Source: an uncultured Chloroflexia bacterium
GTDB lineage: Bacteria > Chloroflexota > Limnocylindria > Limnocylindrales > CSP1-4
Length of the DNA: 64,000 nt
Direction of reading: 5' to 3'
NCBI GenBank assembly: GCA_963800275.1
Contig: CAWDAI010000006.1
Coordinates: 207,130 to 271,129, forward strand
Made by a program: the position numbers and the translations under genes. The notes under the pieces are model-generated. The model was not told the origin of the DNA. It made no database searches and saw only the letters and a program-made list of their open reading frames with translations. Positions 872 to 63,209 of this stretch are shown here, in pieces. How positions within the stretch are numbered: the stretch's first letter is position 1; every line of letters begins with the position of its first letter.

Positions 872-1096
872 CCGCACCCCTCACGCACCGCGACTGTCCC
901 GCACCAGCGCGCACGTCCGTGCACCACACCTGACCGCCCCGACCTTGAGCCCTCTCGGGCCACGCCCCCCGCACGCAAGTACGGGGTCATCTCCAGCCAG
1001 TGCGGCGGTACGGTGACGTCGGACGCAGATGCGACCTGCGACAGCTCTCCTGCGAGGGCGTCGTGCCCACCGGCAGCAGCGACGGAGCCAAGGCAC

Positions 1097-3580: not shown

Positions 3581-3618
3581 CCGCCGGCCCGGCCCGGGCC
3601 TCAAGATCACGAGTAGGA

Positions 3619-3660
3619 CCCCTCCCTCGGACAGCATGTCCGGCGGAGGGGTTCGTTCTT
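3619..3660 (+). terminator. Rho-independent-like terminator after pilin module A
   Basis: CCCCTCC...GGAGGGG 7-bp GC stem (3619-3651) followed by TTCGTTCTT. Sits 40 nt after the TadG-like stop. Confidence 0.45.
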
Positions 3661-3858
3661 GTGCGCTCAGGTGTTAAGCAGGGTGCGCCAGCCGTTGACT
3701 TCCATCGCCACTAATCGCGCTTCGGTGTGGTCGAAAAGTACCGGGGAGCGTACCATCGTAATGTGGTTCGGGGGACCACTGGTCACAGTCGCCGGTCCTC
3801 CTCCTGGACCCGAGTCCTGAGCGCAGGCCCACGTGGGCCCGACTAGGGGGAATGGCCA

Positions 3859-4845: not shown

Positions 4846-4853
4846 GACTGGCC

Positions 4854-5321
4854 ATGGACGACCAGTGCCAAGCCAAGACCGTCCCCGCGGCGAGGGAACA
4901 TCAGCTCGGTGGGGGGTTGGTGGAGTTCGCCCTGGTCCTGCCATTGCTCGTGCTTGTGATGCTTGGGTTGTTCGACGGTGGCCGGGCGATCATCTTCTAC
5001 TCAGAGTTGTCGAACGCCTCACGCGCCGGCGCTCGCGTGGCAATGGTCAACCAGTCGAACGATGCGAGTTGCTCGGGTAGCGAGCCCACGTTCAAGTGCG
5101 CCGCTGCTGCGCAGACGAGTGGTACTGGACTGACCGCCTCTGATATCGGCGACCTCACGATCGAGGGGGACGACTGCGCCCTCATCAACGCATGCAGTGT
5201 GACAGTGAAGGTGGAGTACACCTACGAGCCGATCACACCGGTCATCGGCGACCTGATCGGTCCGATCGATCTGGTGGCTGAGTCCACGATGCCCATCGAA
5301 CGCCAGCACACGGGCCCATAG
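4854..5321 (+). CDS. TadE-like minor pilin (module B, gene 2)
   Basis: [47 protein letters not shown]. 155 aa. Confidence 0.65.
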   Translation: MDDQCQAKTVPAAREHQLGGGLVEFALVLPLLVLVMLGLFDGGRAIIFYSELSNASRAGARVAMVNQSNDASCSGSEPTFKCAAAAQTSGTGLTASDIGDLTIEGDDCALINACSVTVKVEYTYEPITPVIGDLIGPIDLVAESTMPIERQHTGP

Positions 5322-5324
5322 GAG

Positions 5325-6533
5325 ATGCACATGGACACGAGGCACTTCGGCTCGCGCGAAGGAGGGCAAGTCTTGCCACTCTTCGCGCTTGGGCTTGTCA
5401 CCCTCATCGCTGCCATCGCGCTCGTGCTGGACGGCGGCTTCGCTCTCGCGAAGCATCGCGAAAGCCAGAATGCGAGCGACGCGGCGGCCGAGGCTGGCGC
5501 AGTCGTCTTGGCGGAGCACCGATCTGGTGCCGACCGAACGGATTCCGAAGTGTGGGATGCCGTACAGGGTGTCCTCACCGCGATGGGCATGGATGTTGTT
5601 GGTTCCAGCGCCGAGTACACCAGGATCGATGGGACCGGACTTGGGCTGATGGTCGGCGAGAGCGGCGGTTCTGCGTCCGCCCCACCACCAGCGGCGTGGG
5701 GAGTCACCGTCAATGGTTCGTTGCCTGTCGACACCTTTTTCGCACGCGTCATCGATATCGACGAGTTCGACGCAGCGACGACGGCAACTGCCATAACCGG
5801 GTATGGCAAGCCCGCGGGAACTACGCTGCTTCCTGTCACGCCACCGATCACGATGGTCACGTGTGATGGCACCAACCGGCCGCTGAGCACGGCAACGCGA
5901 TGGGGCACAGAACAGATCTACAAAGTGCCCCTGTGCTCCAACGGTGCCGGCAATGTCGGTTGGTTGGATTGGTCAGACGAATACGACGAGAATGAGGGGG
6001 GCGGCAAGGTCGAGATCGAGGACCAGATCAGGAGTCCGTACATTCCCCCTCCAGGGATCTTGATCCCGGCGTGGCACCAAGTAGCCGAGACTGGCAGCCC
6101 GAACAAGATCGGGATCGAGGACGCCCTGCGAGAGCACGACGGTGAGATTGTCCTTCTTCCTATCTTCGATGCATGGTGCACAGGAGACGTGGAGCCGAAC
6201 AGCGACGGGGTTCTGGACTGCCCTGAGGGCGATGTGAGCCCAGTCGAGAGCCCCGATCCCAGTAACCCAGGTGGCGGCGCCAAGATGTGGTATCACCTCC
6301 AGGAGATCGCCGCGTTCGAGCTTTGCTCGCCGGCGATTGACGGCTGCACCGAGCATGGTGCGTACATCAACTCAGCGACCGAGGCCACCCAGATCTGCGA
6401 ATCGGGTAACGGATCCACGCGTTGTCTCGTTGGCAAGTTCGTCAACTTCATCCCAGGCCCGGGTTACGTCACCGGCGAGCTCGATACCACGGCTGGGCCT
6501 TCGAACTTCCTCGTCATCCAACTGATCAGGTAG
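5325..6533 (+). CDS. TadG-like pseudopilin (module B, gene 3)
   Basis: EGGQVLPLFALGLVTLIAAIALVLDGGFALAKHRESQNASDAAAEAGAVVLA, a TadG-type N-terminus. 402 aa. The 3-nt gap to the previous gene suggests co-transcription. Confidence 0.65.
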   Translation: MHMDTRHFGSREGGQVLPLFALGLVTLIAAIALVLDGGFALAKHRESQNASDAAAEAGAVVLAEHRSGADRTDSEVWDAVQGVLTAMGMDVVGSSAEYTRIDGTGLGLMVGESGGSASAPPPAAWGVTVNGSLPVDTFFARVIDIDEFDAATTATAITGYGKPAGTTLLPVTPPITMVTCDGTNRPLSTATRWGTEQIYKVPLCSNGAGNVGWLDWSDEYDENEGGGKVEIEDQIRSPYIPPPGILIPAWHQVAETGSPNKIGIEDALREHDGEIVLLPIFDAWCTGDVEPNSDGVLDCPEGDVSPVESPDPSNPGGGAKMWYHLQEIAAFELCSPAIDGCTEHGAYINSATEATQICESGNGSTRCLVGKFVNFIPGPGYVTGELDTTAGPSNFLVIQLIR

Positions 6534-6535
6534 GT

Positions 6536-6561
6536 CCCGACGCTCCAGCAGCGGAGTCGGG
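6536..6561 (+). terminator. Hairpin after pilin module B (possible terminator, no U-tract)
   Basis: CCCGAC-g-CTCC agcagc GGAG-t-CGGG, immediately after the stop at 6533. Confidence 0.3.
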
Positions 6562-6877
6562 CCAGGTTGGGCCGGGAGGAGAACAACTGCGGTGCGGCAC
6601 GCCCTTGTGGTCCCATCGCAGACGTCGGGACAGCCATCCGAGCCATACGTTCACGAATGCTAGTCGAGTTTGACGGCTGCATCAGGCATAGCCTCCAGAT
6701 TTCCCGGTTCTGGTCCATGGTGGACCGCTGGACACCAGTGCGGTGATGTGCAGTCACGCCGTTGATTCCTGTCAGCAGAAAGGCCCAGCGCGCCTATGCA
6801 CTTTGGTCAGGGGACGGTACGATTGAGCCCAGCCGAGGTACCAAGGGTCATCCCTCTGCTGTTCGTCCGAGCGCCAG

Positions 6878-7789
6878 ATGCCTGCCCACTCTCCGGAGGC
6901 GAATGTGGAACCAAACAAATTCAGGGCCGGACCAGAGACCTCCCGGTCGTCATCGTCGCGGTCGGCTGGTCAGGCGCTCGTCGAGTTCGCGCTCGTGCTG
7001 CCCGTCATGCTTCTCCTACTGCTGATGGCAGTCGATTTCGGTCGTTTGTTCACGACCTACATCGCTGTCAACAACGCCGCGCGGGAGGGTGCGTTCTACG
7101 CTGCCGAGCACGCCAAGGACACCCCGTTCGACCAGTCGACGTTCAACGCCGCGGCGCGAGCGGCCGCAGAGAGGGAGGTCAACGTCCAGAGCCAGGGCGG
7201 AGAGGGCACGCTGTCGGTCAGCCTGCCGGTCTGCTCGGTCGCCGGGGTACCATCCAGCACAGTGTCGTGCGAGACGGCGGCTGCCAGTGGTGGTGTAACG
7301 GGCTACCAGGCCACTGTGACGGTCTCTCGGCCCTTCTCGCTGATCACCCCCATCGTGGGCGACCTCTTCGGCGGTTCGCTTGACCTGACCGCGACATCAA
7401 GCGCGCCGGTTCTGAACGCGCCGAGCGTGATCGTGCTCCCCGGGGCTTCGCCGACTCCTACTCCGTCGCCAACCCCCAGCCCGTCGCCTACCCCGAGCCC
7501 TACGCCCGACCCAGGAGCGTCGCCCAGTCCGTCCCCCGACCCGAACGCCAGCCCGACGCCCACCCCCTCGCCTACGCCTGAACCCACCTGCACAGTGCCC
7601 GACGTGACCTCGAGCGGCAACATCCACTGGTACTACAACACTGATCCCAACGCCCTCGATGCCTGGCAGGTGGCCAACTTCACCGGAGCGCTCGTGGACG
7701 ACACCTCCAACCAGAAGATCAAGAGTCAGACGCGCGCCGCCGGATCGGTGGTGGTGTGTTCCAGCAGCATGACTGTGAGCGACAAGTGA
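6878..7789 (+). CDS. TadE-like minor pilin with Pro/Thr/Ser-rich linker and Cys-bracketed C-terminal module (module C, gene 1)
   Basis: [30 protein letters not shown] motif. Alternative GTG start at ~6906 follows a GGAGG RBS. Linker [21 protein letters not shown]...SPTPEP (aa 189-236) precedes CTVP...WQVANFTG...C. Confidence 0.6.
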
Positions 7790-8352
7790 ACCGACATTCC
7801 ACCCGCACCCGCCAGGATGGCCAGACGCTCGTGGAGTTCGCCTTGGTCCTGCCGTTCTTCATGCTCATCCTCTTCGGGGTCTTCGATGCCGGACGGCTCG
7901 TGTTCACCAACTCGACCCTCTCCCAGGCGGCACGTGAGGGTGCGCGTCTGGCGGCCGTGGAGGCTGGCAACGTCGGTCTCAGCGACAGCGATTGCGTCGA
8001 CACCGCCGCCGATGTCGGGACCTCGGGTGGTATCGGTGCCAAGGTGTGCCCACCTTCCTTGACCTCGCTCAAGACGGACGTGGAGTCCGCCGTGGATCGG
8101 ATGACCGCGGCGGTCGGTCCACTAGCGGCCGTCTATTTCTCCTGCGACCCAGACGGCACGGAGCCGAGTGGCGCCTGGACCGAAACAAGCGAGGGCAATG
8201 GCTGTGACGACGGAAGTGGCAACAGCCTCGGTGCCACCGGCGAATTGGTCTCGGTGCGGATCGAGCACGCCTATCAACCCATCACGCCGGTCATCGGCGA
8301 GATCTTCGGCACGATCACGCTCAGCGGGTCGGCCAGCATGACCATCAACTAG
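7786..8352 (+). CDS. TadE-like minor pilin (module C, gene 2)
   Basis: GTG at 7786 overlaps the upstream stop (GTGA). N-terminus [40 protein letters not shown]. The ORF could extend to an ATG at 7756. Confidence 0.6.
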
Positions 8353-8361
8353 GAGGTCATC

Positions 8362-9426
8362 GTGACGGACCATTCACGGCAGAAGGGCCAAGCTCTTGCG
8401 CTCCTCGCCATCGCCTTGGCTGCAATCGTGGCTGGCGTCGCTGTCGTCGTCGACGGCGGATATGCGTATGCACAGCGTCGCGCCTCGCAGAATGCGGCCG
8501 ACTTCGCGGCGATGGCGGGCACTCGCCTCATCGGCCAGGCGCGGACGAACAGTTCCGTTAGTGGCGGACAGGTCCGGAGCGCGGTCGATACGTCGCTCAC
8601 CTCGAACGGTGCCTCGCTCGTCTCTGGCACATACATCGATGAGGACGGCCAGGCCATCGGTGCCCTCTCAACAGGCGGGTCGATCCCGCCGAACGCTTTT
8701 GGACTCGTCGTGCAGGCCAAGACAGACTGGCAGCCGTTCTTGCTCGGAGTCATCGGGATCACTGACTGGGCGGCCGGAGCCAAAGCCACCGCCAAGACGC
8801 CGGGCGAGGCGCTCGGCGGTGGGGTCATGCCGGTGGGGATCCAGGACTCTCAATTCGATGGCCTCGTGCCCTGTCCCATCACCGATCTCGGCACCTGCAT
8901 CGATCAGAACCTCACGTCGGGGGCACTCAACATCCCCGGGGGGTTCGGCTGGCTCAAGTTCGGCCTCCAAGGTACCGGGGGCAAGTGCAGCTGGACGAGC
9001 AGTCTGGGCATGATCGCCGACGGCGGCTGCCAGACCAGCAAGACCTACCTTGATTCGCAGATCGGCCCGCCGGCCGACTCGCACGGCTGCTGCACTGCGG
9101 TGGACCAGAGCGGCAGCGTGGACCTCATCGGCAGCCTCACCGGCAACGAGTGGGGAGACCTCAGCTTCTACATCGATAACCGTATCCCCGTTTGGGTGCC
9201 GATCTGGGACTCGCCGCAGGGAACTGGCGCGAACTCCTCCTACCACATCGTCGGATTCGGCGCGATCGTCTTCACCGGTGAGAACGAGCACGCCAAGTGG
9301 CTGGAAGGTGCGGCTATCGCAGATGCCTGCAAACCCGGTACGGCCATAACTGGCACGTCGTATTGCACGGAACCCGGTGGGCCCTTCGTCTTGGGCGCGA
9401 CCGGGGAAGTGTTCCTGGTGAACTGA
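8362..9426 (+). CDS. TadG-like pseudopilin (module C, gene 3)
   Basis: AGGAGG RBS, then GTG. N-terminus QKGQALALLAIALAAIVAGVAVVVDGGYAYAQRRASQNAADFAAMAGTRL. 354 aa. Confidence 0.65.
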   Translation: MTDHSRQKGQALALLAIALAAIVAGVAVVVDGGYAYAQRRASQNAADFAAMAGTRLIGQARTNSSVSGGQVRSAVDTSLTSNGASLVSGTYIDEDGQAIGALSTGGSIPPNAFGLVVQAKTDWQPFLLGVIGITDWAAGAKATAKTPGEALGGGVMPVGIQDSQFDGLVPCPITDLGTCIDQNLTSGALNIPGGFGWLKFGLQGTGGKCSWTSSLGMIADGGCQTSKTYLDSQIGPPADSHGCCTAVDQSGSVDLIGSLTGNEWGDLSFYIDNRIPVWVPIWDSPQGTGANSSYHIVGFGAIVFTGENEHAKWLEGAAIADACKPGTAITGTSYCTEPGGPFVLGATGEVFLVN

Positions 9427-9621
9427 GGACCAGGTCAGCATGGTCGCCCCGGCTCTGGAAACGAGCTGGCGCCGGCGGAGCGTGACTCGGGGTAGCATCG
9501 TCTGACGGGAGGGACCAGCCCTTGCCAGTCGGAGGAACGATGCGCCCCCACATGCTCCGTACCCTGGCCACGCTCGTGGCCATCCTCGTCTCGCTGCTGA
9601 CACTCGGCACCTGTCGCCTCC

Positions 9622-11232
9622 GTGGCGCAGAGCCCGGAGCCGAGCGCCGTACCATCGGCTTCCGCGTCGTCGGCGTCCGCGCCAACGGCCCCGGCCTCGG
9701 CCGCGCCAGCAGACGCCTGTGTCCAGCCCGAAGCCAGCCTCGCGCCGGTCGCCCAGGAACCGCTGTCCATCCCGGAGGACTTCCGCATCGCGCTGTTCGA
9801 CGGGGTCTGGCAGGGCATCCGCGACTACTACTGGGACCCTGACACCAACGGGCTCGACTGGGACGCGATCGGCGATGAGTACGCGCCGCTGATCATCCAG
9901 ACCGACGATGCCTACGAGGTCTACTCGCTGCTCTCGGAGATGGTCGGCCTGCTCGACGACCCCTACACCGGCTTCTTCGCGCCGGAGGACCTTGCCAGCA
10001 CGGAGGCGTTCAACGCCAGCTACGGCGGTATCGGTGCCCTCCTCGACACCAGCGCCGCGGGTGAGGACACCGACGGCCTGCGGATCATCTACGTCTTCGA
10101 TGGCGGCTCAGCCAAGGATGCCGGCATCCGTCCCCGCGACCGCATCGTCGCGGTGGAGGGCGACCCGTGCGCTCGCATCGCGGACATCCGCGGCCCGTCG
10201 GGCACGGACGTCACGCTGACCGTGGTCTCGCCGGGCGAGGAGCCGCGCGACGTCATGCTCGAGCGCCGCCAGATCGACCCCACCATCCGCCCCGTCGCGC
10301 ACCGGCTGGACGTCGACCCGACGGTCGGCTACCTGGGCATCATCTCGCTCGCCGGACAGGCGGGCATCGATGGTATCCAGCAGGGCCTGACCGAGCTCCT
10401 CCGCGGCGACCCGCTCGATGGGCTCATCATCGACCTGCGAGCATCCGACACGGGCGCGCCGGCGGTCACCATCTCCACGCTCGGGAACTTCGTCGAGGGT
10501 GAGGTCGGCGAGTATCACTCGCGCGTGGGCAACGAGCCCATCGAGATCGAGCCGAGCGACCTCTTCGACCAGTACGCCGAGGTGCCGGTGGCGGTGCTCG
10601 TGGACGAGCAGACCGAGGCCGATGCCGAGCAGCTGGCGGCGATCCTGCAGGACCAGGGCCGAGCGGTCATCGTCGGCGCCCAGACCTCCGGCCAGACGCA
10701 CGGCGTCGCCACCATCGACTTCCCCGAGGGCTCGCTGCTGCAGGTCGTGTCCTTCGGCTTCCAGCTCCCGGACGGCCGGACGCTGGAAGGGGAGGGCGTG
10801 ACGCCCGACGTGCCGGTCGAAGCTGACTGGCTGGCCTATCCGGAGTCGGAGGACCCCTTCATCCTGGCCGCGCTCGACGCGCTGTCGGCCCCGGTCGCCA
10901 GCCCGGGCCCGGAGGGTGGCTCGGCGCCCAGCCCGGCAGCCACCGCGCCAGGCCACCGAACCTGCGACCGCCGAGGCCTCGCCTGCCGGATAGAGGTGGC
11001 AGGCCACCTCGTGGCCCGGCTCGACCTCGATGAGCGGCGGGACCACGCGCTCGCAGACGCCCGCGATGACCGCCGGGCAGCGGGGTGCGAAGGCGCAGCC
11101 GGGTGGCAGGTCGCCCGCATCGGGCGGCTCGCCCCCGACGACCGGGCGCTGCCGATGGCGGTTGGCCGGATCCGGCTCCGGCACCGCCGCCAGCAGGGCC
11201 TTGGTGTAGGGGTGCAGCGGGCGCTTCGATGA
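9622..11232 (+). CDS. S41-family C-terminal processing peptidase (CtpA/Prc-like, PDZ + S41 domain); apparently frameshifted; catalytic residues possibly substituted
   Basis: PDZ-like GGIGALL...IRPRDRIVAVEG. S41 core VAVLVDEQTEADAEQLAAILQDQGRAVIVGAQTSGQTHG. The lipoprotein-type signal peptide (MRPHMLRTLATLVAILVSLLTLGTC, ATG ~9540 after a GGAGG RBS) lies in a different frame. The ORF runs ~240 nt past a plausible natural end (TAG in the +1 frame at ~10991). Confidence 0.55.
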   Translation: MAQSPEPSAVPSASASSASAPTAPASAAPADACVQPEASLAPVAQEPLSIPEDFRIALFDGVWQGIRDYYWDPDTNGLDWDAIGDEYAPLIIQTDDAYEVYSLLSEMVGLLDDPYTGFFAPEDLASTEAFNASYGGIGALLDTSAAGEDTDGLRIIYVFDGGSAKDAGIRPRDRIVAVEGDPCARIADIRGPSGTDVTLTVVSPGEEPRDVMLERRQIDPTIRPVAHRLDVDPTVGYLGIISLAGQAGIDGIQQGLTELLRGDPLDGLIIDLRASDTGAPAVTISTLGNFVEGEVGEYHSRVGNEPIEIEPSDLFDQYAEVPVAVLVDEQTEADAEQLAAILQDQGRAVIVGAQTSGQTHGVATIDFPEGSLLQVVSFGFQLPDGRTLEGEGVTPDVPVEADWLAYPESEDPFILAALDALSAPVASPGPEGGSAPSPAATAPGHRTCDRRGLACRIEVAGHLVARLDLDERRDHALADARDDRRAAGCEGAAGWQVARIGRLAPDDRALPMAVGRIRLRHRRQQGLGVGVQRALR

Positions 11233-11977
11233 TCGCAGCTGCCGATGCCAGCTCCACCACGCGGCCGGCATACATCACCGCGATGCGGTCGGCGAAGTGA
11301 CGCGCAGAGGCCAGGTCGTGGGTGATGTACAGGAACGTCAGGCCGCGCGCTCGCTGCAGCTCGGAGAGCAGGTACAGGATCTCCGCGCGACTCGACGCGT
11401 CGATCATCGAGACGGGCTCGTCCGCGACCAGGTAGTCGGGCTCCAGCACCATGGCGCGGGCGATGCTCACGCGCTGTCGCTGGCCGCCGGAGAGCGTGTG
11501 GGGGTACTTCTCCACGAACTCGGCGGCGGGAGAGAGCTTGACCTGTTCGAGGGCGTCGAGCACCCGTGGCGCCTGCTCTGACCGGTCCGTGGGGCCGTGG
11601 ATGTCCAGTGGCTCCGCCACCAGCTGTCCCACACGCATGTAGGGGCTGAGGCTGGAGAACGGATCCTGGAAGATGGCCTGGGCGCGGCGGCGGAAGGCGA
11701 GCATGGACTTGCCGCTGAGGCCCGCGATGTCCTGGCCTTCGAAGATCACTCGCCCATCGGCTGCCGGCACCAGCCGCAGGGTGGCCCGGCCGAGCGTCGT
11801 CTTGCCGCTGCCCGACTCGCCCACGACCGCCACCGTCTCTCCAGAGGCGAGGTCGAGCGAGACGCCCGTGACCGCGGCGATCGGCCGGGTATGCAGGAAC
11901 GAGGTGCGCACTTCGAACCGGACCGAGAGGTCCTCGATGCGCAGCACCGGCCCGTCCGTCGTGCGCGGTTGGCTCAC
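10859..11977 (-). CDS. Oligopeptide/dipeptide ABC transporter ATP-binding protein (OppF/DppF-like), apparent frameshift near 11225
   Basis: Walker A GESGSGKTTL, signature LSGGQRQR, Walker B LVADEP. The C-terminal oligopeptide-type HPY segment (PLHPYTKALLAAVPEPDP...CAFAPRCP) is in another frame (ORF 10108..11271). The GTG start overlaps the oppD stop (GTGA). Confidence 0.55.
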   Translation of the reverse strand: MSQPRTTDGPVLRIEDLSVRFEVRTSFLHTRPIAAVTGVSLDLASGETVAVVGESGSGKTTLGRATLRLVPAADGRVIFEGQDIAGLSGKSMLAFRRRAQAIFQDPFSSLSPYMRVGQLVAEPLDIHGPTDRSEQAPRVLDALEQVKLSPAAEFVEKYPHTLSGGQRQRVSIARAMVLEPDYLVADEPVSMIDASSRAEILYLLSELQRARGLTFLYITHDLASARHFADRIAVMYAGRVVELASAAAIIEAPAAPLHQGPAGGGAGAGSGQPPSAAPGRRGRAARCGRPATRLRLRTPLPGGHRGRLRARGPAAHRGRAGPRGGLPPLSGRRGLGGRRFGGLARWLPGWAPSHPPGPGWRPGPTARRARPG

Positions 11978-12950
11978 GGCGTCACCTCCGCCCGCGCAGC
12001 ATCCGACACCACCCGCCAGCAGCGCGCGCGGTGGCCGGCCTCGAGCTCCACGTAGGGCGGGGCCGCGCTACACGCCTCGTACACCAGCGGGCATCGGGGC
12101 GCGAAGCGGCAGCCCGCGATGGGCTCGCGCAGATCCGGCGGCGCCCCCCGCAGGAAGGCCGGCGGGCTCGCGTCGTACAGGCTCGGGATGCTTGCCAGCA
12201 GGCGCTGGGTGTAGGGGTCGGCGGGAGCGCCCAGCACCTGCTCGGCGCTGCCCAGCTCGCGCACCTGGCCGGCATAGACCACGGCCACCTCGTCACACAG
12301 GTCGGACGCGAGGGCCAGGTCGTGGGTGATGAAGAGCATGGAGATGTGGCGGCTCGCCTTGAGCTCCTTGAGCAGGTTCATGATCTGGGCCTGGATGCTC
12401 ACGTCGAGCGCGCTGGTGGGCTCGTCGAGGATGAGCAGCGACGGATCGTTGGTCAACGCGGAGGCGATCATCACGCGCTGCTTCATGCCGCCCGACAGCT
12501 CATGGGGATAGCGCTGGGCGATCGCGGCGGGCAGGCCCACCTGCACCAGCAGCTCGGCCACGCGTGCCCGCACCTCGCGCTTGCCCAGCCCGTCCACGCG
12601 CAGGCGCTCTCCGACCTGGTCGCCGACCCGGATGACCGGGTTGAGCGAGTGCATCGCACCCTGGAAGACCATGGCCATCCGACTCCAGCGGATCCGCCGC
12701 CGGAAGGACTCGTCGTCGAACCCGGTGAGCTCCTCGTCCCCGAGGCGGATCGAGCCGCGGGCGAGGCTGCCGTTGCCCGGCAGCAGTCGCATGAGGGCGA
12801 CCGCCAGGCTGGTCTTGCCGCTGCCCGACTCGCCGATGACACCGAGCGCCTGGCCTTCTGCAAGATCGAAGCTGATGCCGTCCACCGCCCGCAGCGGACC
12901 ACGCTCGGTGCGGTACTCGACCACCAGGTCACGCACCTCCAGCAGGGCCA
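11974..12950 (-). CDS. Oligopeptide/dipeptide ABC transporter ATP-binding protein (OppD/DppD-like)
   Basis: Start MALLEVRDLVVEY at ~12950 abuts the upstream permease stop. GESGSGKTS, LSGGMKQR and ILDEPTSALD motifs. C-terminal CRFAPRCP segment. Confidence 0.8.
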
Positions 12951-14372
12951 TCAGTCGCGCCGCAGCCGGGGATTCACGACCGGCTCCATGGCCAGCGCCA
13001 GGAGCATGAAGGTCATGGCCGTGAGCACGATGAGCAAGCCCGGCGACACCACCCACCACCAGTAGCCAAGGAAGACGGCGCCGGTGCGGAAGCCGTCCTC
13101 GAGGATCTGGCCCCAGGTCGGGAGCGAGGGATCGCCCAGCCCCAGGAAGGAGAGACCGGCCTCGGCGAGGATGACCGCGGGCACGAAGAAGATGAGCTGC
13201 GTGAACACGTACGGTGCGGTGTGCGGGAAGATGTGCCGCACCATGATCTGCCGGCTCGAAGCTCCCATCGCGCGCGCGGCCTCCACCTCCTGGCTGCCGG
13301 AGAGCCCCAGCACCATCGAGCGCACGAGGATGGTCAACCCCGGCCAGCTGAACGCCACCAGCAGCAGCAGGATCAGCCACAGCTGGGCCCCGAAGACGAA
13401 GACGAAGAAGATCAGCAGCGGCAGCAAGGGCACGTTGTTGACCACGTCCGCGGCGCGCTGGATGAGCAGGTCGACGCGGCCGCCGCGATAGCCGCTGAGC
13501 AGGCCCAGGCTGGTGCCGATGACGGTGCTGACCGTGGCCGCGGCGATACCGATGAGCAAGGCCACCGGCAGACCGAAGGCGAGGCCCTGTGCCAGGTCGC
13601 GCCCGGAGGCATCGGTGCCGAGCAGGCCGAAGACGGTCCCGCCGACCACGAAGCGGACCCACTCGATCGAATCCTCCGGGCTGGCGAGGGCCGCACGCAC
13701 CTGCGCGCTGTACTCCCCTTGGAGCGGCGCCAGCACCCCGTCGGGCCCAGGTGCGCCGAAGAGGGCTGCGGTCGGGTCCGCTGCGACATCGCTCGCGGTC
13801 AGCTCCAGGCCGTAGGCCTCGTTGAGGGCATCCGCGGTCGCTTGCGCGACCTCGGACTCCGAGGTCAGCAGGACGCGCAGGGGGGTCTGGTCGTGGCGCA
13901 CGTACGGCGGCTCCTCACCCGGGCGAGGGCCCCGGATCGTCGTGCGCAGGAGGGGTACGGACGTGCCGTCCGGCCGCAGGAGCGTCACGCTCAAGGCCGG
14001 CGGACGCTCGCTGAAGGTGACCGGTCCCAGGCTGAAGGAGAGGAAGGTCGGCGCCGCATCTGCGGCCTGGTCGAAGACCAGGTCGTAGACCTCGACGCGG
14101 CCATCGCCGCGCTCGGTGGTCTCGCCCGGCTCGCTCGACTCGAGCACCTGGTGCTCGACGACGTCGCCACCGAGCAGCGCGGTCCAGGCCGGGGGCACGG
14201 CCTTGGGGTAGTCGGCCCAGACCGCGGGGTTGGACCAGCGCGCCGGGCCGAAGTCGAGGGGGAAGGTGATCAGCACCAGCAGGCTCGTGCCCAGCAGTAC
14301 CAGCATCAGGGCTACGCCCACTTTGCCCGCGGTGCTGGCGAGGACGGCGCGCCACAGGCTTCGCCGTTTCAC
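12951..14372 (-). CDS. ABC transporter permease (OppC/DppC-like) with long N-terminal extracytoplasmic segment
   Basis: GTG start overlaps the oppB stop (GTGA). The C-terminal half carries a BPD-transporter motif (EAARAMGAS, multiple TM helices). Confidence 0.75.
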   Translation of the reverse strand: MKRRSLWRAVLASTAGKVGVALMLVLLGTSLLVLITFPLDFGPARWSNPAVWADYPKAVPPAWTALLGGDVVEHQVLESSEPGETTERGDGRVEVYDLVFDQAADAAPTFLSFSLGPVTFSERPPALSVTLLRPDGTSVPLLRTTIRGPRPGEEPPYVRHDQTPLRVLLTSESEVAQATADALNEAYGLELTASDVAADPTAALFGAPGPDGVLAPLQGEYSAQVRAALASPEDSIEWVRFVVGGTVFGLLGTDASGRDLAQGLAFGLPVALLIGIAAATVSTVIGTSLGLLSGYRGGRVDLLIQRAADVVNNVPLLPLLIFFVFVFGAQLWLILLLLVAFSWPGLTILVRSMVLGLSGSQEVEAARAMGASSRQIMVRHIFPHTAPYVFTQLIFFVPAVILAEAGLSFLGLGDPSLPTWGQILEDGFRTGAVFLGYWWWVVSPGLLIVLTAMTFMLLALAMEPVVNPRLRRD

Positions 14373-15427
14373 TGGTAGCGCACCCGCGGGTCGAGGAAGA
14401 CGTAGAGGACCTCCAGCAGCAGCCGTGCCGCCACGTAGATGAGCGTGAACATGAAGGTCAGCCCGATGATGATGGACTCGTCGGGCTGGCCGGAGAAGGT
14501 CTTGAAGTAGAGCTGGCCCATGCCCTCCCAGGCGAAGACCGTCTCGATGAGGATCGAGCCCCCGAGGGTCGCTGCCAGCCCCAGGATGAGCCCGGTCACG
14601 ATGGGCGGCGCGGCCACGCGCAGGATGTGCCGTCGGCGGATCAGCCCCTCCGGCAGGCCCTTGGCTCGGGCCACCGTGACGTGGTCGGAGAGGGCCACGT
14701 TGAGGGTCATCGTGCGGATCACGTAGATCGACGGCCCGATGCTCACCAGCACCAGCGTCAGGACGGGCAGGAGGGCATGCCGCGCGAGATCGAGGAAGGA
14801 GGCGACCGGACCCTCCGGTGGGGGTGTCGAGTACATCCCGCCCGAGGGCAGGATCCGCAGCCAGAAGCTGAAGACGAGGATGAGCAGGATGCCCGCCCAC
14901 CACGCCGGCAGGCCGTTGGTGATGGCGGCCACGTAGGACACGAAGCGGTCGGCCCGCGAGCCGGGCCGCGTCGAGAGCCAGACGCCGACCGTGAGGCCGA
15001 TGAAGGCGGTGATGAGCAACGAGGTCGTGAGCAGCATGACCGTGCGCGGCAGGCGCTCGAGGATGATGTCAGCCACGCTGTTGGAGCCGTCAGCGGCGCG
15101 GATGGACCGGGCCTCGCCGAGGTTGAACACGAGCACCTGGGCGACCACTGCGGGCAGGCGCTCGTACCACGCTCGATCGAGTCCGTACGAAGCCTCCAGC
15201 TCCGCCCGTCGCGTGGCGATGATCTCCTCCACCGCGTCGGGGTCCTTGACCGTCTCGGACAGGCTCGTGCGCATCCCGCGCAGCTCCTCGCCGACCTGCG
15301 CCTGCAGGATGTTGTCCGAGTAGCCCGTGGCGCCAAGCGTGAGCACCAGCAGCACGAGCACGATGATGAGCACCGCGCCCAGGCTCGCGGCCCGGACCAG
15401 GATGGGGCGCAGCAGCGACGAGCTCAC
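14369..15427 (-). CDS. ABC transporter permease (OppB/DppB-like)
   Basis: 352 aa, six predicted TM segments, conserved RTMTLNVALSDHVTVARAKGL segment typical of OppB-type permeases. Confidence 0.8.
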   Translation of the reverse strand: MSSSLLRPILVRAASLGAVLIIVLVLLVLTLGATGYSDNILQAQVGEELRGMRTSLSETVKDPDAVEEIIATRRAELEASYGLDRAWYERLPAVVAQVLVFNLGEARSIRAADGSNSVADIILERLPRTVMLLTTSLLITAFIGLTVGVWLSTRPGSRADRFVSYVAAITNGLPAWWAGILLILVFSFWLRILPSGGMYSTPPPEGPVASFLDLARHALLPVLTLVLVSIGPSIYVIRTMTLNVALSDHVTVARAKGLPEGLIRRRHILRVAAPPIVTGLILGLAATLGGSILIETVFAWEGMGQLYFKTFSGQPDESIIIGLTFMFTLIYVAARLLLEVLYVFLDPRVRYQ

Positions 15428-15475
15428 GAGCCGGTCTGGCCCTCCCTGGGTCTCGCTAGATGGTCGGACCCAAGG

Positions 15476-17887
15476 TCAGGGCAGGACCTCCAGGTCGACC
15501 CGGCGCTCATCGATCAGCGCCAGGGCATCACTCTCGGCGGCCAGGAAGAGCTGGTAGAAGCCGGGGAACAAGGAGCCGGTGATGTCGGCGGGGATGGTCA
15601 CGCTGAAGGCACCATCGGCGCCTGCCTCGGCGTCCCCCGAAGCCACCACCTCACCCACGGCCGGGTCCAGCAGGAGGTAGCGCATGGCCACCGTCCCGGG
15701 TCCGTCCACGGCCGCCTCGACCACGGCAGCCTCACCCGGCACCACCGGCTCGGCGGTGACGTCCGTGATGGCCAGGGTCGGCGGATCGCCGCGGTAGAAG
15801 TCGCCAGCCGTGAAGGGATAGGTCGGATCCCGGAAGGCGTCCAGCTCGGCGAACTGGGCCGGTGGGTCGAAGCGCTCGAGATAGAAGGGCCCCTGGCTGA
15901 TCACCAGGTGGTCCTTCTCGTCGAACCAGTCCTGCGCCGCCTGGTATCTGGCCATGGCCTCGTCGGGCGTGACCAGCGTGCGGTCGCCGAACTGGAACAC
16001 GCCCGCGGGCACGAAGTCGTCGCGCTCGAACCCGCGCAGCGTGCGATCCACCAGCTGGGCGTCGCGCTTGAGCACGAGCGACAGCCAGGGCACGCTGAAG
16101 CGACTGGCCGCGGTATCGCTGTAGGCCGCTCGCCGCTCGTTGAAGACGAGCTCGTCCATGGCCGCCTTGACCTCCCACGGCATGTCGAAGCCGGTGGGGC
16201 TGGCGTAGGCTGCGATGTAGTCGTCATCGAAGTGCCAGTAGTCGGTATAGACCTCCAGGCGGTCGTCGTCGGTGAGGCGGTAGCCCTTGAACGTCTCCAG
16301 CACCGGTCGTGCGGTCACCGCCAGCGCCGTCTCGATCTTGGCTTTCTCGGGGTCGTAGGCCATGTCGAAACCCTGGGCGATCGAGTAGACCGCGTCGGCC
16401 AGGGTGATGGGCTGGCCGTCGTGCCAGTTCGCGCTCGTGTACTTGGAGTAGTCGAAGGTGACTTTGCTCACGGCGGTCGTGCCGGCCGCCACGGGCACCC
16501 AGGCCTTGGTTTCGACATCCCAGGTGAGGGCATCGGCAGGGACGTCCATGGTGCCGTCCGGCCCCGCGGTCTCGACCTCGTATTCCGCCCGGAACGGCTG
16601 CGGCAGGCCGGTGAAGGGATCGTTCCAGATGGGCGGGTCGGCCAGGTTTCGCCACACGTCCACGGAGTAGACGTCGCCGAATCCGCCGACCGGGTTGTAG
16701 GTGGTGCGCTCTGTCCAGACCCACTGGTGACCGACGCGAACGTCGCCGCTGCCGGGCACGTGCGCCTCGCGCAGGGCCCACGGGTTGCGCGGCCCGGCCA
16801 CGATGTCGGTCGTCAGACCCTCCACGTCGTCGAGCACGGGGAAGCTGTTGTCCACCGTCGCGAGCCAGACCCGGACCGACTCGTCGAGACCGGCCTCGGT
16901 CATGGTGCGGTAGATCTGGTTGCGCTCATCGAGGCTGGTGAACTGCCCGCGATAGAGCGTCTGGCCCAGCTGGTCGAGCTCGTCGTTCTCGTACTGCCAG
17001 AAGCCTTCCTCGCGCCAGCCCGGCATCTGGCCCAGCCAGGGCGCGATGTAGGCGTTGACGGCACCCACGTCGTAGCGACTGGCCGAGCTACGGCCCCAGC
17101 CCTCCGTGTAGATGTGCCACTCGAAGGAGGCAGGGTCCGAGGCGTAGACCTTCTGCAGGGCAGCCGCGAACTGGTCATAGGTGATGGCCACCTCGAAGCC
17201 GGCGGCTTCCAGCTCCGAACGCACGAGGTCCGCGATGTCGCGACGCTCGTCCTCCACGCGACCGATGAGCTTGATGCGGATGGGCTGGCCCTCGTAGTGC
17301 CAGGTGCCATCCACCAGCTCCGCGCCGGCCGCGATCATGGCCTCCGAGATGAGGTCTCGGGCCAGCTCGGGGTCGTAGGTGATGCCTGAGCCACGGTCGA
17401 TGTCGTAGATGGTCAGGAAGTCGGGGTCGCTGGGGCCGACCTGCGTGAGCATGGGCTGCGCCGCCCCGCGGTAGATGTCCTGGGCGATGGCCTCGCGGTT
17501 GACGAGGTACTGCATCGCCTGGCGCACCTCCTTGATGGAAAAGGGGTTCAGTTCGCCTTCGCGTGCAGGGGCCGGGTTGAGGATGAGGTCGACCTGGGTC
17601 GCGGGCGCGTCGATGAGACGGACGCCCTCGGTGCCGCGCAGGTCCTGGGCCGCCTCTGTCTTGAGCCCGAAGAGGTAGAGGTCCATGTTGCCGGCCTCGA
17701 TGTCGAGGGGCGCACGGTCCACGAAGAAGCTGTTGAAGAGGAGGCGGTCGGCCGCCGGGCCGGGCCGGTCGGACGCGGGTTCGCTCGAGTCGTCCTGGGC
17801 CAGGGCCGTCCCCGGCAGCAGGCCGGCCACGAGGGCCAGGCCCAGGGCGAACGTGAGTGTTGCCCGCACGTTGGCGCGTCCGGTCAC
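15476..17887 (-). CDS. ABC transporter substrate-binding protein, family 5 (peptide/oligosaccharide-binding), secreted
   Basis: 803 aa. Signal peptide MTGRANVRATLTFALGLALVAGLLPGTALA. Length and composition fit family-5 solute-binding proteins. Placed upstream of oppBCDF-like genes. Confidence 0.75.
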   Translation of the reverse strand: MTGRANVRATLTFALGLALVAGLLPGTALAQDDSSEPASDRPGPAADRLLFNSFFVDRAPLDIEAGNMDLYLFGLKTEAAQDLRGTEGVRLIDAPATQVDLILNPAPAREGELNPFSIKEVRQAMQYLVNREAIAQDIYRGAAQPMLTQVGPSDPDFLTIYDIDRGSGITYDPELARDLISEAMIAAGAELVDGTWHYEGQPIRIKLIGRVEDERRDIADLVRSELEAAGFEVAITYDQFAAALQKVYASDPASFEWHIYTEGWGRSSASRYDVGAVNAYIAPWLGQMPGWREEGFWQYENDELDQLGQTLYRGQFTSLDERNQIYRTMTEAGLDESVRVWLATVDNSFPVLDDVEGLTTDIVAGPRNPWALREAHVPGSGDVRVGHQWVWTERTTYNPVGGFGDVYSVDVWRNLADPPIWNDPFTGLPQPFRAEYEVETAGPDGTMDVPADALTWDVETKAWVPVAAGTTAVSKVTFDYSKYTSANWHDGQPITLADAVYSIAQGFDMAYDPEKAKIETALAVTARPVLETFKGYRLTDDDRLEVYTDYWHFDDDYIAAYASPTGFDMPWEVKAAMDELVFNERRAAYSDTAASRFSVPWLSLVLKRDAQLVDRTLRGFERDDFVPAGVFQFGDRTLVTPDEAMARYQAAQDWFDEKDHLVISQGPFYLERFDPPAQFAELDAFRDPTYPFTAGDFYRGDPPTLAITDVTAEPVVPGEAAVVEAAVDGPGTVAMRYLLLDPAVGEVVASGDAEAGADGAFSVTIPADITGSLFPGFYQLFLAAESDALALIDERRVDLEVLP

Positions 17888-17890
17888 GAT

Positions 17891-20119
17891 CTACTCCCCG
17901 CTATCCGAGGGCGCTGCGCTCGCCGGTGCTTCCGTCGCACGTGCCCCCTCGCTGCCGTTGCCGGCACCGGCGCTCGACTCCATCTCGTCGATGCGCTGGC
18001 CAAGCTGGTCGAGCATCGTGGCGATGTCGCCGAAGCCGAACTCGGTGAAGAACGACGTGCTGGCGCCATTGCCCGACTCGTCGAAGACGGTGATGGTCTG
18101 GCTGCCCTCGCTGGTGATGGGCATGTAGATGCGGGCGCTGAACTCGCCGTCCATGTTCGTGCGCAGCGTGCTGATGGTGCTGTCGCCGAGCTGGACGTAC
18201 ACGCCCATGTCGGGCTGGAAGGCGAAGCCCTGCAGCGTCACCTCCTGGCCACCGGGACCCGACGGCGGGCTGATGAAGATCTCCGGCGTGTCGATGGCCT
18301 CGATGCGTGCGGTCGCGACCTTCTGGTTGGCCGGGCCGAACTCGCCGAGACGGGCGTCGGACCAGACCAGGTGGACGTCATCCTCGGTCGCGGCCAGGCT
18401 GAAGTAGTCGCCGATGAAGAGGCCATTGGGGAAGGCGTAGTTGGGATTGGAGGGGAAGTCGGTCACCCGGGTGTCACCGACCTGCAGACCCAGCTCCTCG
18501 TTGGTGAAGCCGAAGGTCTGGCCCTGGTCGTCGGAGCGCGTGTAGTAGATGTTGTAGCTCGACTCGGTGGGGCTGTCGCGGAAGTCGCCCCACATGGCGT
18601 GGACCACGCCGTCCGGGCTGACGTCGATCGACGGGAACATCTGCGTATGCTCCGAATCGTCGTCATTGAGCACCTTCGGCCGGGACCAGGTCCCGCCCTT
18701 GTCCATGGAGACGGTGAGGAAGACGTCGCCGTCGTCGCTGGGCTTGTCCGAGGGGCGGCCCACATAGGCCACGTAGACCTCGCCTTCCGGCCCCGTCGCG
18801 ATCTGGGGGAAGGCCGAGGCCCAGAAGCGGAAGTAGTTCGTGCGCGGCCGGAACTCGGGCTCGTTGAAGACCGAGGCCACGACCGGTGTGGACCAGGTGT
18901 CGCCCCCGTCGGTCGAGGAGGCCACCTGGATCTCGGCGATGCCCTTCTGGGAGTCGTCATCGGTACTGTCCATCCAGGCCACGTGCACCGTGCCGTCGGG
19001 CGCGACCGCGGGCTGGCTGCCCTGCACCACGCGCAACGTGCCCACCACGCCGGGCGCACCGCTGCCATCGCCGGTCTCACCGTACGCTCGGCGCACGACC
19101 GGGCTCACGGCCACCGGATCGGTCCAGGTCAGGCCGCCGTCCTCGGACTTGACCAGCTCGATGCTGGTGCGCATCTCGGTCGGCAGCAGGTTGGGGATCT
19201 CACCGATATAGAGGATCTCGTAGCTGATGTCGAAGTTGGTGTAGGTGACGTAGAGCACGTCCTGCTCCGAACCGTCGACGCTGGGTCCGGAGGCCATCCA
19301 GGGCTTGTCCAGGAAGCTCATATCCACCGTGCCGCGGAGGCGCCCGAACCGGTCGCTCTCCAGGCCGTCGGTGTTGACCCGGCTGCGCGCCGAAGAGATC
19401 TGGATGGGCCAGGTGTAGCCCTCGTCCTCCGACTTGGCCACGGCGATGCTCGAGACCTGTGCCGAGACCTCGATGGGACCGAGGTTGAAGTCATCGACGC
19501 CGATGGAGATGTAGGCGAGGTAGACGTTGCCATCGCGGTCGAAGGCCACGACCGGGTCACCGCCCGAGCCAAGGTCCTCGGTCAGGTAGGGCACCTGGTT
19601 GGGGCCGTCCCAGCGCTCGCCGCCGTCGAAGCTGACGTACGTGGACATCGACGGGAAGGCGTAGTCGATGACGCCCAGCAGGAGGTGCTGCGGATCCTCC
19701 GGATCGGCCTCGATCATGGGTTCGGTCTGGAAAGGGATGTTGCTGTAGTCGCGTGTTACCAGCAGGTTGCGCGAGAAGGCGGGGCCTGGATCGCGATAGG
19801 GGACCGGCGCGCCTGCGCCGGCCGCCTGGGTGCGCACGTCGCTGCTGAGGTCAGAACCGGTCCAGGGGTCGTAGGTGGGCATGTCGCCGGCACCCGGATC
19901 GACGCCTTTGGTGGCCAGCCACGACGGGCCGGAAAGGAACTGGCTGGCAGGTCCCAGCAGGTCGGCAGGAGATGCACCCAGCAGCCCGATGACGTTGGAG
20001 GGATCCTGGCCCAGCGAGCCCTCTCCTTCTTCTCCCGCGGCGACCGGGAAGGCCAGGCTCAGCACGAACGTGAGGGACGTACCCAGCACGAGCGGCCAGG
20101 CGGATCGGGATGCGGACAT
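17891..20119 (-). CDS. Secreted BNR/Asp-box repeat beta-propeller protein (sialidase/glycosyl-hydrolase-like)
   Basis: Signal peptide. Repeated SxDxGxTW Asp-box motifs (SEDEGYTWP, SEDGGLTWTDP, STDGGDTWSTP, SMDKGGTWSRP, SDDQGQTF). Ends 4 nt upstream of the SBP gene on the same strand. Confidence 0.7.
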   Translation of the reverse strand: MSASRSAWPLVLGTSLTFVLSLAFPVAAGEEGEGSLGQDPSNVIGLLGASPADLLGPASQFLSGPSWLATKGVDPGAGDMPTYDPWTGSDLSSDVRTQAAGAGAPVPYRDPGPAFSRNLLVTRDYSNIPFQTEPMIEADPEDPQHLLLGVIDYAFPSMSTYVSFDGGERWDGPNQVPYLTEDLGSGGDPVVAFDRDGNVYLAYISIGVDDFNLGPIEVSAQVSSIAVAKSEDEGYTWPIQISSARSRVNTDGLESDRFGRLRGTVDMSFLDKPWMASGPSVDGSEQDVLYVTYTNFDISYEILYIGEIPNLLPTEMRTSIELVKSEDGGLTWTDPVAVSPVVRRAYGETGDGSGAPGVVGTLRVVQGSQPAVAPDGTVHVAWMDSTDDDSQKGIAEIQVASSTDGGDTWSTPVVASVFNEPEFRPRTNYFRFWASAFPQIATGPEGEVYVAYVGRPSDKPSDDGDVFLTVSMDKGGTWSRPKVLNDDDSEHTQMFPSIDVSPDGVVHAMWGDFRDSPTESSYNIYYTRSDDQGQTFGFTNEELGLQVGDTRVTDFPSNPNYAFPNGLFIGDYFSLAATEDDVHLVWSDARLGEFGPANQKVATARIEAIDTPEIFISPPSGPGGQEVTLQGFAFQPDMGVYVQLGDSTISTLRTNMDGEFSARIYMPITSEGSQTITVFDESGNGASTSFFTEFGFGDIATMLDQLGQRIDEMESSAGAGNGSEGARATEAPASAAPSDSGE

Positions 20120-20167
20120 CGTTCTCCTTGTCGAAGTGGGTGGGGCGGCGGCCTGAAGGTCAGTGAC

Positions 20168-20758
20168 TCAGCGCACGCGATCGAGGATGGTCAGCAGGCT
20201 GTCCAGCCGGTTGGCCACGGACATGAGCACTTCCGAGCGGAATTCTTCCATGGACGAATCGAAGGCGTTGGCGCCGGTCTCCACATAGGCATCGGTGTAG
20301 GCCTGCACGGAGTCGTAGTCGCCGAAGCGCCAGTCCAGGAACGTGGGCACCGCGTCATCGAGGCGCTTGACGATCCGGCCCAGTCCGGCCGGATCGGACG
20401 CGAGCGCAAGGTCGCGGATACGGGCCAGCTGGGCCTCGGCTTCCGGACGCGTCTCCGGCAGCGCCTTGCGTAGCTCCACGAGCAACTGGCGATCCGCTTC
20501 CAGCGGCGAGTACAGCTTATCGAAACGGTCGAGCGACTTGCGCAGCTGGTCTCGCTCCTGCTCCAGCTGGCTGACCGTCTGCTGCAGGCTGCTGTTGTCC
20601 GCGCGCAGCTCCTCCACCGTGGGGGCAGAGCCTTCCAGCTCGGCACGCTCGGCATCGGTGGCAGTAGCGGTGAGCGCAGGCAGGGACATGGCCGTCGCGA
20701 GGACCACGGCGGTGACGAACCCACGTACGGGCGGGCGGGCGGACTCCTTCGTCAGCAT
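20168..20758 (-). CDS. Hypothetical secreted coiled-coil protein
   Basis: Internal ATG at ~20758 gives MLTKESARPPVRGFVTAVVLATAMSLPALTA (signal-like). Heptad-like, charged helix-rich remainder. Confidence 0.4.
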   Translation of the reverse strand: MLTKESARPPVRGFVTAVVLATAMSLPALTATATDAERAELEGSAPTVEELRADNSSLQQTVSQLEQERDQLRKSLDRFDKLYSPLEADRQLLVELRKALPETRPEAEAQLARIRDLALASDPAGLGRIVKRLDDAVPTFLDWRFGDYDSVQAYTDAYVETGANAFDSSMEEFRSEVLMSVANRLDSLLTILDRVR

Positions 20759-21302: not shown

Positions 21303-21349
21303 CGCGCCTATCCTATCGACCCATCCGCACACCGCCTCGGAGCTCGCCG

Positions 21350-59307: not shown

Positions 59308-59318
59308 ATATCAGGCCG

Positions 59319-63203: not shown

Positions 63204-63209
63204 ACCGAG

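Follow-up and report, generated by a model that had tools for sequence, protein, structure and literature searches.

A secreted S41 peptidase homologue without catalytic residues is linked to an Opp-type importer cluster in an uncultured Chloroflexia bacterium, and its frame breaks are most likely assembly artefacts

Introduction

Can a gene that is split between reading frames, seems to have lost its active site and stays open beyond its plausible end still be an intact gene, and what might its product do? This question is raised by a homologue of the S41 (CtpA-like) peptidases encoded by an uncultured Chloroflexia bacterium (Limnocylindria; CSP1-4; assembly GCA_963800275.1), located between an array of pseudopilin-like genes and an ATP-binding cassette (ABC) importer cluster of the Opp type. 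We analysed the surrounding stretch of 64,000 nucleotides (CAWDAI010000006.1:207,130-271,129, G+C content 69%), which is called the window throughout. A first, sequence-only reading of this DNA had described a lipoprotein-type signal and an S41 body in different frames, substituted catalytic residues and an overlong frame, and had considered a role in pilus biogenesis.

Our answer, which we hold to be moderately probable as a whole, is that the gene is intact, that its frame breaks are artefactual and that its product is a non-catalytic, peptide-binding accessory of the Opp-type importer. What we regard as genuine biology is a conserved, secreted S41 homologue that lacks both catalytic residues, is under purifying selection and is tied to an ABC importer, and the frame-split and run-on parts are most likely artefacts of the assembly.

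Reconstruction of the S41-like gene

A ribosome-binding site (GGAGG, 9531-9535) and an ATG at 9540 open a signal-peptide-like open reading frame (ORF) in frame 0, which starts with MRPHMLRTLATLVAILVSLLTLGTC, and the S41 body follows in the next frame as a 536-codon ORF (9622-11232) that is closed upstream by the TGA at 9598-9600. This separation of signal and body, seen already in the sequence-only reading, was confirmed by the position of these codons and by the plot of G+C at third codon positions (GC3), which changes phase in between. The GTG at 9622, from which the mature protein had been thought to begin, is simply the first start codon past a stop, and the true start lies elsewhere. The features needed to follow the reconstruction are these:

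9540..10993, plus strand: S41-like pseudo-protease gene in its most likely true form, a reconstruction colinear with the homologue P0001
9540..9629, plus strand: Sec-type signal peptide MRPHMLRTLATLVAILVSLLTLGPVASVAQ, broken by one extra base according to the alignment to relatives
9609..9609, plus strand: extra base (+1) relative to the contigs L002 and L001
10946..10953, plus strand: Pro/Ala-rich tail of variable length with an extra G at about 10952, from a three-way alignment
10994..11232, plus strand: spurious ORF run-on, from the frame plot and a hidden Markov model (HMM)
10836..11977, minus strand: OppF-like ATPase, frame-split at about 11226-11227, overlapping the S41-like gene by 158 nucleotides

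More than 200 homologues, about 445-490 amino acids long, were retrieved in a protein search. The closest intact one is P0001 (486 amino acids, 92-94% identity), which starts with MRPHMLRTLATFVAVLASLLTLGPVASVAQSPE and ends, before its stop codon, with ...AATEPATAEAPPAG. The extra bases were placed by aligning the window at the DNA level with two relatives: L002, a MEGAHIT-style short-read contig that carries P0001, and L001 (contig_47652), a long-read-style contig that is 96.5% identical to the window. Relative to the short-read contig L002, each break is a gain of exactly one base. The first is the base at 9609, where the window reads GGCACCTG and the relatives read GGT-CCTG (L002) and GGG-CCTG (L001); it splits the signal peptide from the body, coincides with the change of phase in the GC3 plot and lies where an indel had been suspected (near 9600-9620). 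The second is a G at about 10952 in the Pro/Ala-rich tail, missing in L002 and L001, which causes the read-through of the S41-like frame and also shifts the tail of OppF on the minus strand. Both genes are disturbed by this single G because, once corrected, they overlap convergently by 158 nucleotides (10836-10993). The third is a T at about 11226-11227, likewise missing in the relatives, which splits the convergent OppF frame.

Removal of base 9609 and of one G at 10952 results in a clean S41-like protein of 483 amino acids that is colinear with P0001 and stops at the TAG 10991-10993, with the C-terminus ...APATEPATAEASPAG restored by removal of the G. If the G (about 10952) and the T (about 11227) are removed on the other strand, an OppF of 379 amino acids is obtained, colinear with the OppF of the related locus L053 (357 amino acids).

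The remark that the frame stays open past a plausible C-terminus was borne out as well, since the uncorrected ORF continues until 11232 and the relatives end at the TAG that corresponds to 10991-10993 in the next frame of the window. The run-on of about 240 nucleotides is antisense to OppF, and this region is assigned to the minus strand by the GC3 frame plot as well as by an HMM of GC periodicity; according to the HMM the plus-strand coding signal ends at 10990. The sole homologue of the run-on translation is P0113, the corresponding run-on of L001, a contig rich in errors. The run-on after 10993 is thus spurious and non-coding on the plus strand, being antisense DNA that is too G+C-rich to hold stops.

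Secretion, domains and fold

The real N-terminus appears to be a Sec-type signal, ...LLTLGPVASVAQ↓S, with a putative cleavage site. The signals of the homologues end in ...LLTLGPVASVAQSPE or ...A.P.AAQ(E/D), without Cys, and the corrected window sequence, ...LGPVASVAQ, likewise lacks the +1 Cys of a lipobox. The lipoprotein-type signal had to be rejected as a product of the wrong frame: the Cys of LGTC (LTLGTC) spans the inserted base and exists solely in the misframed reading. Behind the signal, three domains were recognised:

9796..9948, plus strand: Tricorn_C1-type N-terminal helical domain (Pfam PF14684, E = 1.7e-14)
10033..10224, plus strand: PDZ domain with a YGGIGA loop (Pfam PDZ_6/PDZ)
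10324..10818, plus strand: S41 domain without catalytic residues (Pfam PF03572, 81.1 bits against a cut-off of 24)

The PF03572 match spans positions 2-165 of the 165 positions of the profile and, together with the fold of the carboxyl-terminal processing proteases (CTPs), places the protein in the S41 homology family. An AlphaFold2 model built from an alignment of 49 sequences (pLDDT 85, pTM 0.78; pLDDT above 90 in the PDZ region) matched best to the D1 protease in a Foldseek search (1fc7, E = 3.5e-29), followed by CtpA and CtpB. The carboxylate-binding loop of the PDZ domain, YGGIGA, is unchanged, with G163, I164, G165 and A166 invariant in the 49 sequences, and at two further positions, C60 and C210 of the reconstructed protein, a cysteine is found without or almost without exception. 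The S41 scaffold, too, is largely conserved across the clade of close homologues, in which the DLRxNxGG loop is altered to DLRAS(D/N)xGAP. All NCBIfam CTP models remained below their cut-offs (TIGR00225 (prc) 129 against 218.6; CtpA/B/C/Z models 121-133 against 525-665).

Loss of the catalytic residues

In pairwise HMMER alignments the active-site motif of the window protein, LVDEQTEADAEQLAAILQDQGRAVIVGAQTSGQTHG, runs without gaps against P. aeruginosa CtpA (...GGSASAAE...SFGKG) and the D1 protease (...GTASASE...TFGKG), and the same columns read ...GSASASEI...TFGKG..Q in canonical S41 genes from other loci and phyla. The nucleophile column is occupied by Ala (A333 of the ORF, nucleotides 10618-10620) and the column of the S41A lysine by Gln (Q358, 10693-10695), confirming the substitutions that had been proposed for this motif; in the AlphaFold2 model a helix begins exactly at the Ala (A360 after reconstruction). 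Alignment to CtpA, among the checks that had been suggested, places no conserved Ser or Lys at the dyad positions.

The substitution is not confined to the window. No nucleophile Ser was found in the readable motifs of 120 close homologues (a count that leaves out three frame-broken sequences and a truncated one) or of 29 related loci, where Ala or Gly stands instead. The motif of this clade, which is seen in Limnocylindria (Chloroflexota) and Trueperaceae, is [TS]-E-[AG]-[DE]-A-E, and its 'Lys' column is variable (Q/K/E/L/M/R/V). Since the Ser is absent in every readable member, its loss is a property of the clade and not an error in the window.

Which chemistry was lost depends on the nearest active relatives. 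A profile search of 1.84 billion representative proteins, the best 148 hits of which were aligned to the family profile, identified bacterial S41 peptidases with a tricorn-like C1 domain as the nearest relatives of the window protein. Such tricorn-like peptidases (MEROPS S41B-type, Ser-His; for instance the tricorn core 1k32/1n6d and the putative peptidases 4l8k, 8vcb and 4ghn) have the same order of domains as the window protein, Tricorn_C1-PDZ-S41. Co-variation was examined in those 130 representatives in which neither the nucleophile column nor the C1-His column is empty: 86 have Ser and His, 38 have neither, four have Ser alone and two His alone. In the Ser-bearing relatives (n = 90) the 'Lys' column contains Asn in 72 cases and Lys in three, and in 80 there is a Glu two positions further on (GN[TV]E).

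The proper reference for these nearest active relatives is therefore the Ser/His chemistry of tricorn and CPAF and not a Ser/Lys dyad. The proposed loss of the dyad holds for the nucleophile, and it does not hold for the Lys, because the nearest active relatives mostly carry Asn in this column; the real partner is a His that has become Tyr. Y115 (9964-9966), just past the Pfam C1 match, fills the column that is His in active relatives, with DDPYTGF of the window aligning to KDGHTNL (4l8k) and QDGHVNL (8vcb). Whereas tricorn-like peptidases have Ser, His and GN[TV]E, the window clade has Ala or Gly for the Ser, and Tyr, Leu and others for the His, and the window reads GQTH for GN[TV]E, so that H360 occupies the column of the Glu. 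From these alignments, the real catalytic losses of the window protein are Ser to Ala (A333) and His to Tyr (Y115), accompanied by GNTE to GQTH. A further Glu, E389, is invariant in the clade and is found in 69 of the 90 Ser-bearing relatives. By linear offset A333 and Y115 fall on residues that we take to be tricorn Ser965 and His746 in the numbering of Brandstetter et al. 2001. E389 might correspond to tricorn Glu1023 or CPAF Glu558, judged by spacing only (Glu about 56-58 residues past the Ser).

A rough neighbour-joining tree requires at least 12 changes between Ser and non-Ser and places the window protein in a monophyletic clade of 11 representatives that all lack the Ser; loss of catalysis is thus recurrent within this S41 subfamily. 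Because its clade has lost both the nucleophile Ser and the partner His, the protein cannot act as an S41 serine protease. The earlier designation as a pseudo-protease is justified by the missing nucleophile, and sequence and model together suggest that the protein no longer cleaves.

It might be argued that hydrolase activity persists at a non-canonical site, for instance one built from the Thr/Ser at -2, H360, E389 or the acidic cluster TEADAE. Conservation is strong in the fold and in many motifs that form the pocket, and the Thr/Ser at -2, E336, E389 and mostly also H360 have been kept. However, canonical S41 enzymes also conserve the Ser/Thr at -2 and the Glu at +3, so that neither is new, and within the clade H360 turns into Gln or Arg, and E332 and D334 are variable (Q, V, A, P, G). 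In addition, the joint loss of Ser and His is the pattern expected once catalysis has been abandoned, and the DLRxNxGG loop has changed. We therefore consider a remaining hydrolase activity improbable.

Compared with known S41 systems, the protein shares different traits with different groups. Solved structures of S41A enzymes (CtpA/CtpB/Prc/D1 protease, Ser/Lys) are its best matches (7rqh/8sxe, E = 5e-27, besides 1fc7 mentioned above), and like these CTPs it is secreted and has a PDZ domain, with carboxylate loop, inserted in the protease fold; unlike them it lacks both the nucleophile Ser and the general-base Lys and stays below the NCBIfam cut-offs, and its closest active relatives do not use the Lys. 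With the tricorn/CPAF type it shares the C1 domain before the PDZ domain, with Ala and Tyr in place of the catalytic Ser and the C1 His. A third comparison is offered by IRBP (retinol-binding protein 3), an S41 homologue that lost the same catalytic Ser and became a non-catalytic extracellular carrier (PMC10120077). Both proteins are secreted, have the S41 fold and have the nucleophile replaced at the start of the helix, and the S41 domain of the window protein matches IRBP 9frx with E = 1.6e-17. IRBP is eukaryotic, consists of four tandem modules without PDZ domain and binds retinoids and fatty acids, whereas the window protein is bacterial, has a single module with PDZ domain and is linked to an Opp-type importer. 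Loss of the Ser has occurred repeatedly in this S41 subfamily, as it did en route to the vertebrate IRBP. A literature search on bacterial S41 pseudo-proteases and on tricorn/CPAF catalytic residue numbers yielded nothing directly usable.

Frame breaks: assembly errors or biology

We consider it very probable that the three frame breaks between 9.6 and 11.23 kb are single-base insertions introduced by assembly or sequencing. One indication comes from dnaE (59295-63427, plus strand) in the same window, which is split between an ORF at 59295-61370 (PHP domain and positions 1-179 of the DNA_pol3_alpha profile) and an ORF in another frame at 61190-63427 (profile positions 206-260, followed by the finger, HHH and OB domains). 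The junction at about 61315-61325 lies inside the conserved core, where ...CARIDGVP is followed by RHLSIHVGGMLV... (RHLSIHVGG...). Since dnaE is essential, its break indicates assembly indels in the window. Furthermore, a dN/dS (ratio of nonsynonymous to synonymous substitution rates) of 0.175 for the whole S41-like gene and of 0.117 for its core, determined between window and L002, shows that the gene is not drifting. Together, the split of dnaE and the dN/dS of 0.12-0.18 make assembly indels far likelier than gene decay.

About five further same-strand, stop-less frame switches were located with the HMM and ORF analysis (35494, 36581, 49322, 56613 and 60944-61332), and those at 35494, 36581, 49322 and 56613 are probably more assembly indels. 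The relatives themselves come almost all from metagenome-assembled genomes (MAGs) with Flye-style (Nanopore-style 'contig_N') contig names. L001 has its own, differently placed one-nucleotide insertions, approximately one per kb, including a different extra G in the same tail that leads to the same read-through.

Candidates for such switches are holA, since the ORF 34837-35577 contains its C-terminal domain only, comEC at its 3' end, a Band_7/SPFH gene with a domain that begins at the first codon of the ORF, and an unassigned gene. Pfam checks of the holA and Band_7 splits are suggestive.

A different view would be that the frameshifts are real and that the S41-like gene and OppF are recent pseudogenes, perhaps decaying together as functional partners. 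Three indels within 1.7 kb strike two genes of one conserved module, no window-specific frame break occurs in the 10 kb of the operon that follow, and the close relative L001 reads through the same stop. Against this stand the low dN/dS, the lack of in-frame stops or any other decay, and the frame-split of dnaE, by which the assembly itself is seen to carry indels; the breaks of L001 lie elsewhere, on a contig full of one-nucleotide insertions. The cluster of indels also adjoins the strain-variable junction at about 9470, where consensus errors from mixed strains might be expected. On balance real pseudogenes are unlikely here.

It might also be possible that the frame changes are programmed ribosomal frameshifts, and two frame changes within one gene would be compatible with that; nothing else speaks for it. 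The orthologues of the relatives encode the same protein in a single frame, slippery heptamers are lacking at 9600-9612 and 10945-10955, and OppF and dnaE have similar breaks. Programmed frameshifting was therefore rejected and can be regarded as effectively refuted.

With single-base insertions as the cause, two of the three oddities flagged at this locus are explained. The insertions gave the protein a spurious lipoprotein signal, an apparent truncation at the N-terminus and 80 spurious residues at the C-terminus, which is a warning for work with MAGs assembled from long reads.

Linkage to an Opp-type importer cluster

Beyond OppF the minus strand encodes the rest of the conserved cluster (11974..20758), identified with Pfam and NCBIfam:

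11974-12954, minus strand: OppD
12951-14378, minus strand: OppC with an N-terminal extension of about 250 amino acids
14369-15427, minus strand: OppB
15476-17887, minus strand: large OppA-like binding protein, 803 amino acids
17891-20119, minus strand: membrane-anchored BNR propeller protein, 742 amino acids
20171-20758, minus strand: secreted helical protein, 196 amino acids

The S41-like gene is invariably linked to this helical-BNR-OppA-like-OppBCDF cluster in two phyla. Each of the 31 related loci with sufficient flanking sequence has an OppF homologue within 2.5 kb of the S41-like gene, and every locus that is sequenced far enough has the complete set (OppF, D, C, B, the family-5 binding protein of 800 amino acids, BNR and helical proteins). 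The cluster proteins are 62-70% identical across phyla. Gene orientation differs between lineages. In the Limnocylindria, including the window, the S41-like gene is convergent with the helical-BNR-Opp operon, and in three loci it is part of a co-directional operon of eight genes: in the short-read contig L053 (55% identity) it is the first gene of this tight operon, and the Trueperaceae chromosomes L023 and L024 (OY759346.1, OY764543.1; 46-48% identity) have the same gene order. In L023 (9833-11767) and L024 the S41-like and the helical protein are encoded in one continuous ORF with a hydrophobic, signal-peptide-like joint, possibly a fusion of the two genes. In L054 (11473-12963) and L055 (1995-3485), both with 48% identity, the S41-like gene and the convergent OppF are separated by a sulfatase gene.

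The two loci represent a branch of the clade that is more distant, and in them the sulfatase gene overlaps the S41-like stop codon.

The permeases and ATPases are of a generic Opp/Dpp/Nik type, and NCBIfam has no specific name for any gene of the cluster. The OppA-like protein has one strong solved relative (7fi3, 732 amino acids, 'ABC-type dipeptide/oligopeptide transport system', E = 4.9e-46). For the BNR protein no informative solved relative was found, the best match being a candidate sialidase of family GH33 (E = 0.004), and the single-sequence AlphaFold2 model of the helical protein was too poor for a fold search (pLDDT 59, pTM 0.30).

The cluster is headed by a gene for a predicted multi-pass membrane protein of 138 amino acids without family match (20916-21332, minus strand).

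Taken together, 9540-10993 is most likely one intact gene for a secreted protein of 483 amino acids with the C1-PDZ-S41 architecture of tricorn-like peptidases, whose PDZ carboxylate-binding loop and fold are kept under strong purifying selection without catalysis. Outside the cell the protein might bind the C-termini of peptides or proteins with its PDZ domain and cleft, without cutting them, and with the helical partner it may capture a ligand, hold it or hand it to the oligopeptide-type ABC importer. Functionally it would then belong with the helical protein, the membrane-anchored BNR propeller, the OppA-like protein and OppBCDF, in a carrier-like role that may be comparable to that of the Ser-less homologue IRBP.

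Several observations weigh against this interpretation. The functional link to the importer is drawn from gene neighbourhood and one fusion; in the Limnocylindria the S41-like gene stands outside the operon, convergent with it; and the large binding protein matches SBP_bac_5 only in part. The Thr/Ser two residues before the lost Ser, the invariant E389 and the mostly conserved H360 persist near the former active site, and three indels within 1.7 kb are denser than the window average of roughly one per 7 kb.

Less probably, the dead S41 protein, its helical partner, the surface BNR propeller and the OppA-like protein of 800 amino acids might form an undescribed multi-component capture system that feeds the Opp-type importer, in which the S41 protein would bind C-termini outside the cell as a receptor or as the subunit that hands them off. 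If true, this system would be a bacterial parallel to the change from protease to carrier behind IRBP. Bacterial pseudo-proteases have been little studied, and this one arrives with an obvious set of partners.

The leader and the upstream Tad array

Upstream of the S41-like gene the plus strand contains nine TadE/TadG-like genes (1013-9426), arranged in three tandem triplets, and a conserved leader:

starts 1013/1519/2177, plus strand: first TadE-TadE-TadG triplet
starts 3859/4854/5325, plus strand: second TadE-TadE-TadG triplet
starts 6878/7756/8362, plus strand: third TadE-TadE-TadG triplet
9477..9539, plus strand: conserved leader/promoter region including the ribosome-binding site, from identity and synteny

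The content of the Tad array differs between close strains, with blocks of 85% and 69% identity and rearrangements relative to L001.

The sequence-only reading had proposed that the S41-like protein might process or chaperone pilus proteins, that is, act as an accessory of the Tad pilus and its nine pseudopilins. The gene is indeed located on the same strand, 113 nucleotides past the last TadG-like gene, and in about half of the Limnocylindria loci its immediate upstream neighbour is a TadG-like gene. The conserved linkage expected of a member of the Tad locus is missing, however: the distance to the nearest TadG-like gene varies between 0.1 and 7 kb across loci, and several Limnocylindria loci as well as Trueperaceae, L053, L054 and L056 have no such array upstream. 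Between strains, synteny breaks at about 9470-9477, precisely where the pilin array gives way to the leader of the S41-like gene.

Among the window, L001 and L002, identity is 92-96% in the coding region and reaches 100% over the 60 or so nucleotides that precede the ATG. The leader boxes GAGTCGGGGTAGCATC, GGAGGGACCAC and GGAGGAACG-ATG are conserved across the Limnocylindria loci. This conservation across strains and Limnocylindria indicates an independent promoter or leader. For the leader and first codons (9470-9560) a hairpin of -50.9 kcal/mol (z = -3.75) was predicted that pairs the ribosome-binding site. A consensus scan of 9300-11300 for promoters and terminators found none, and an Rfam scan of the whole window gave no match in the leader. 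Elsewhere in the window, for instance upstream of the ABC cluster, the leader box GGGTAGCATC is not enriched (5 hits against 3.9 expected).

A pilus role is very unlikely, given that only some members of the clade have the Tad array next to the gene, that this adjacency is missing in other phyla, and that the gene is preceded by a leader of its own, in front of which synteny breaks. For a processing function the protein would also lack the nucleophile, and Tad prepilins are processed by the aspartic peptidase TadV. The invariant neighbour of the S41-like gene is the Opp-type importer cluster.

Other features of the window

The Rfam scan detected two tRNAs alone (RF00005; scores of the pair 64.6 and 67.9 bits):

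45775-45847, minus strand: tRNA
51940-52012, minus strand: tRNA

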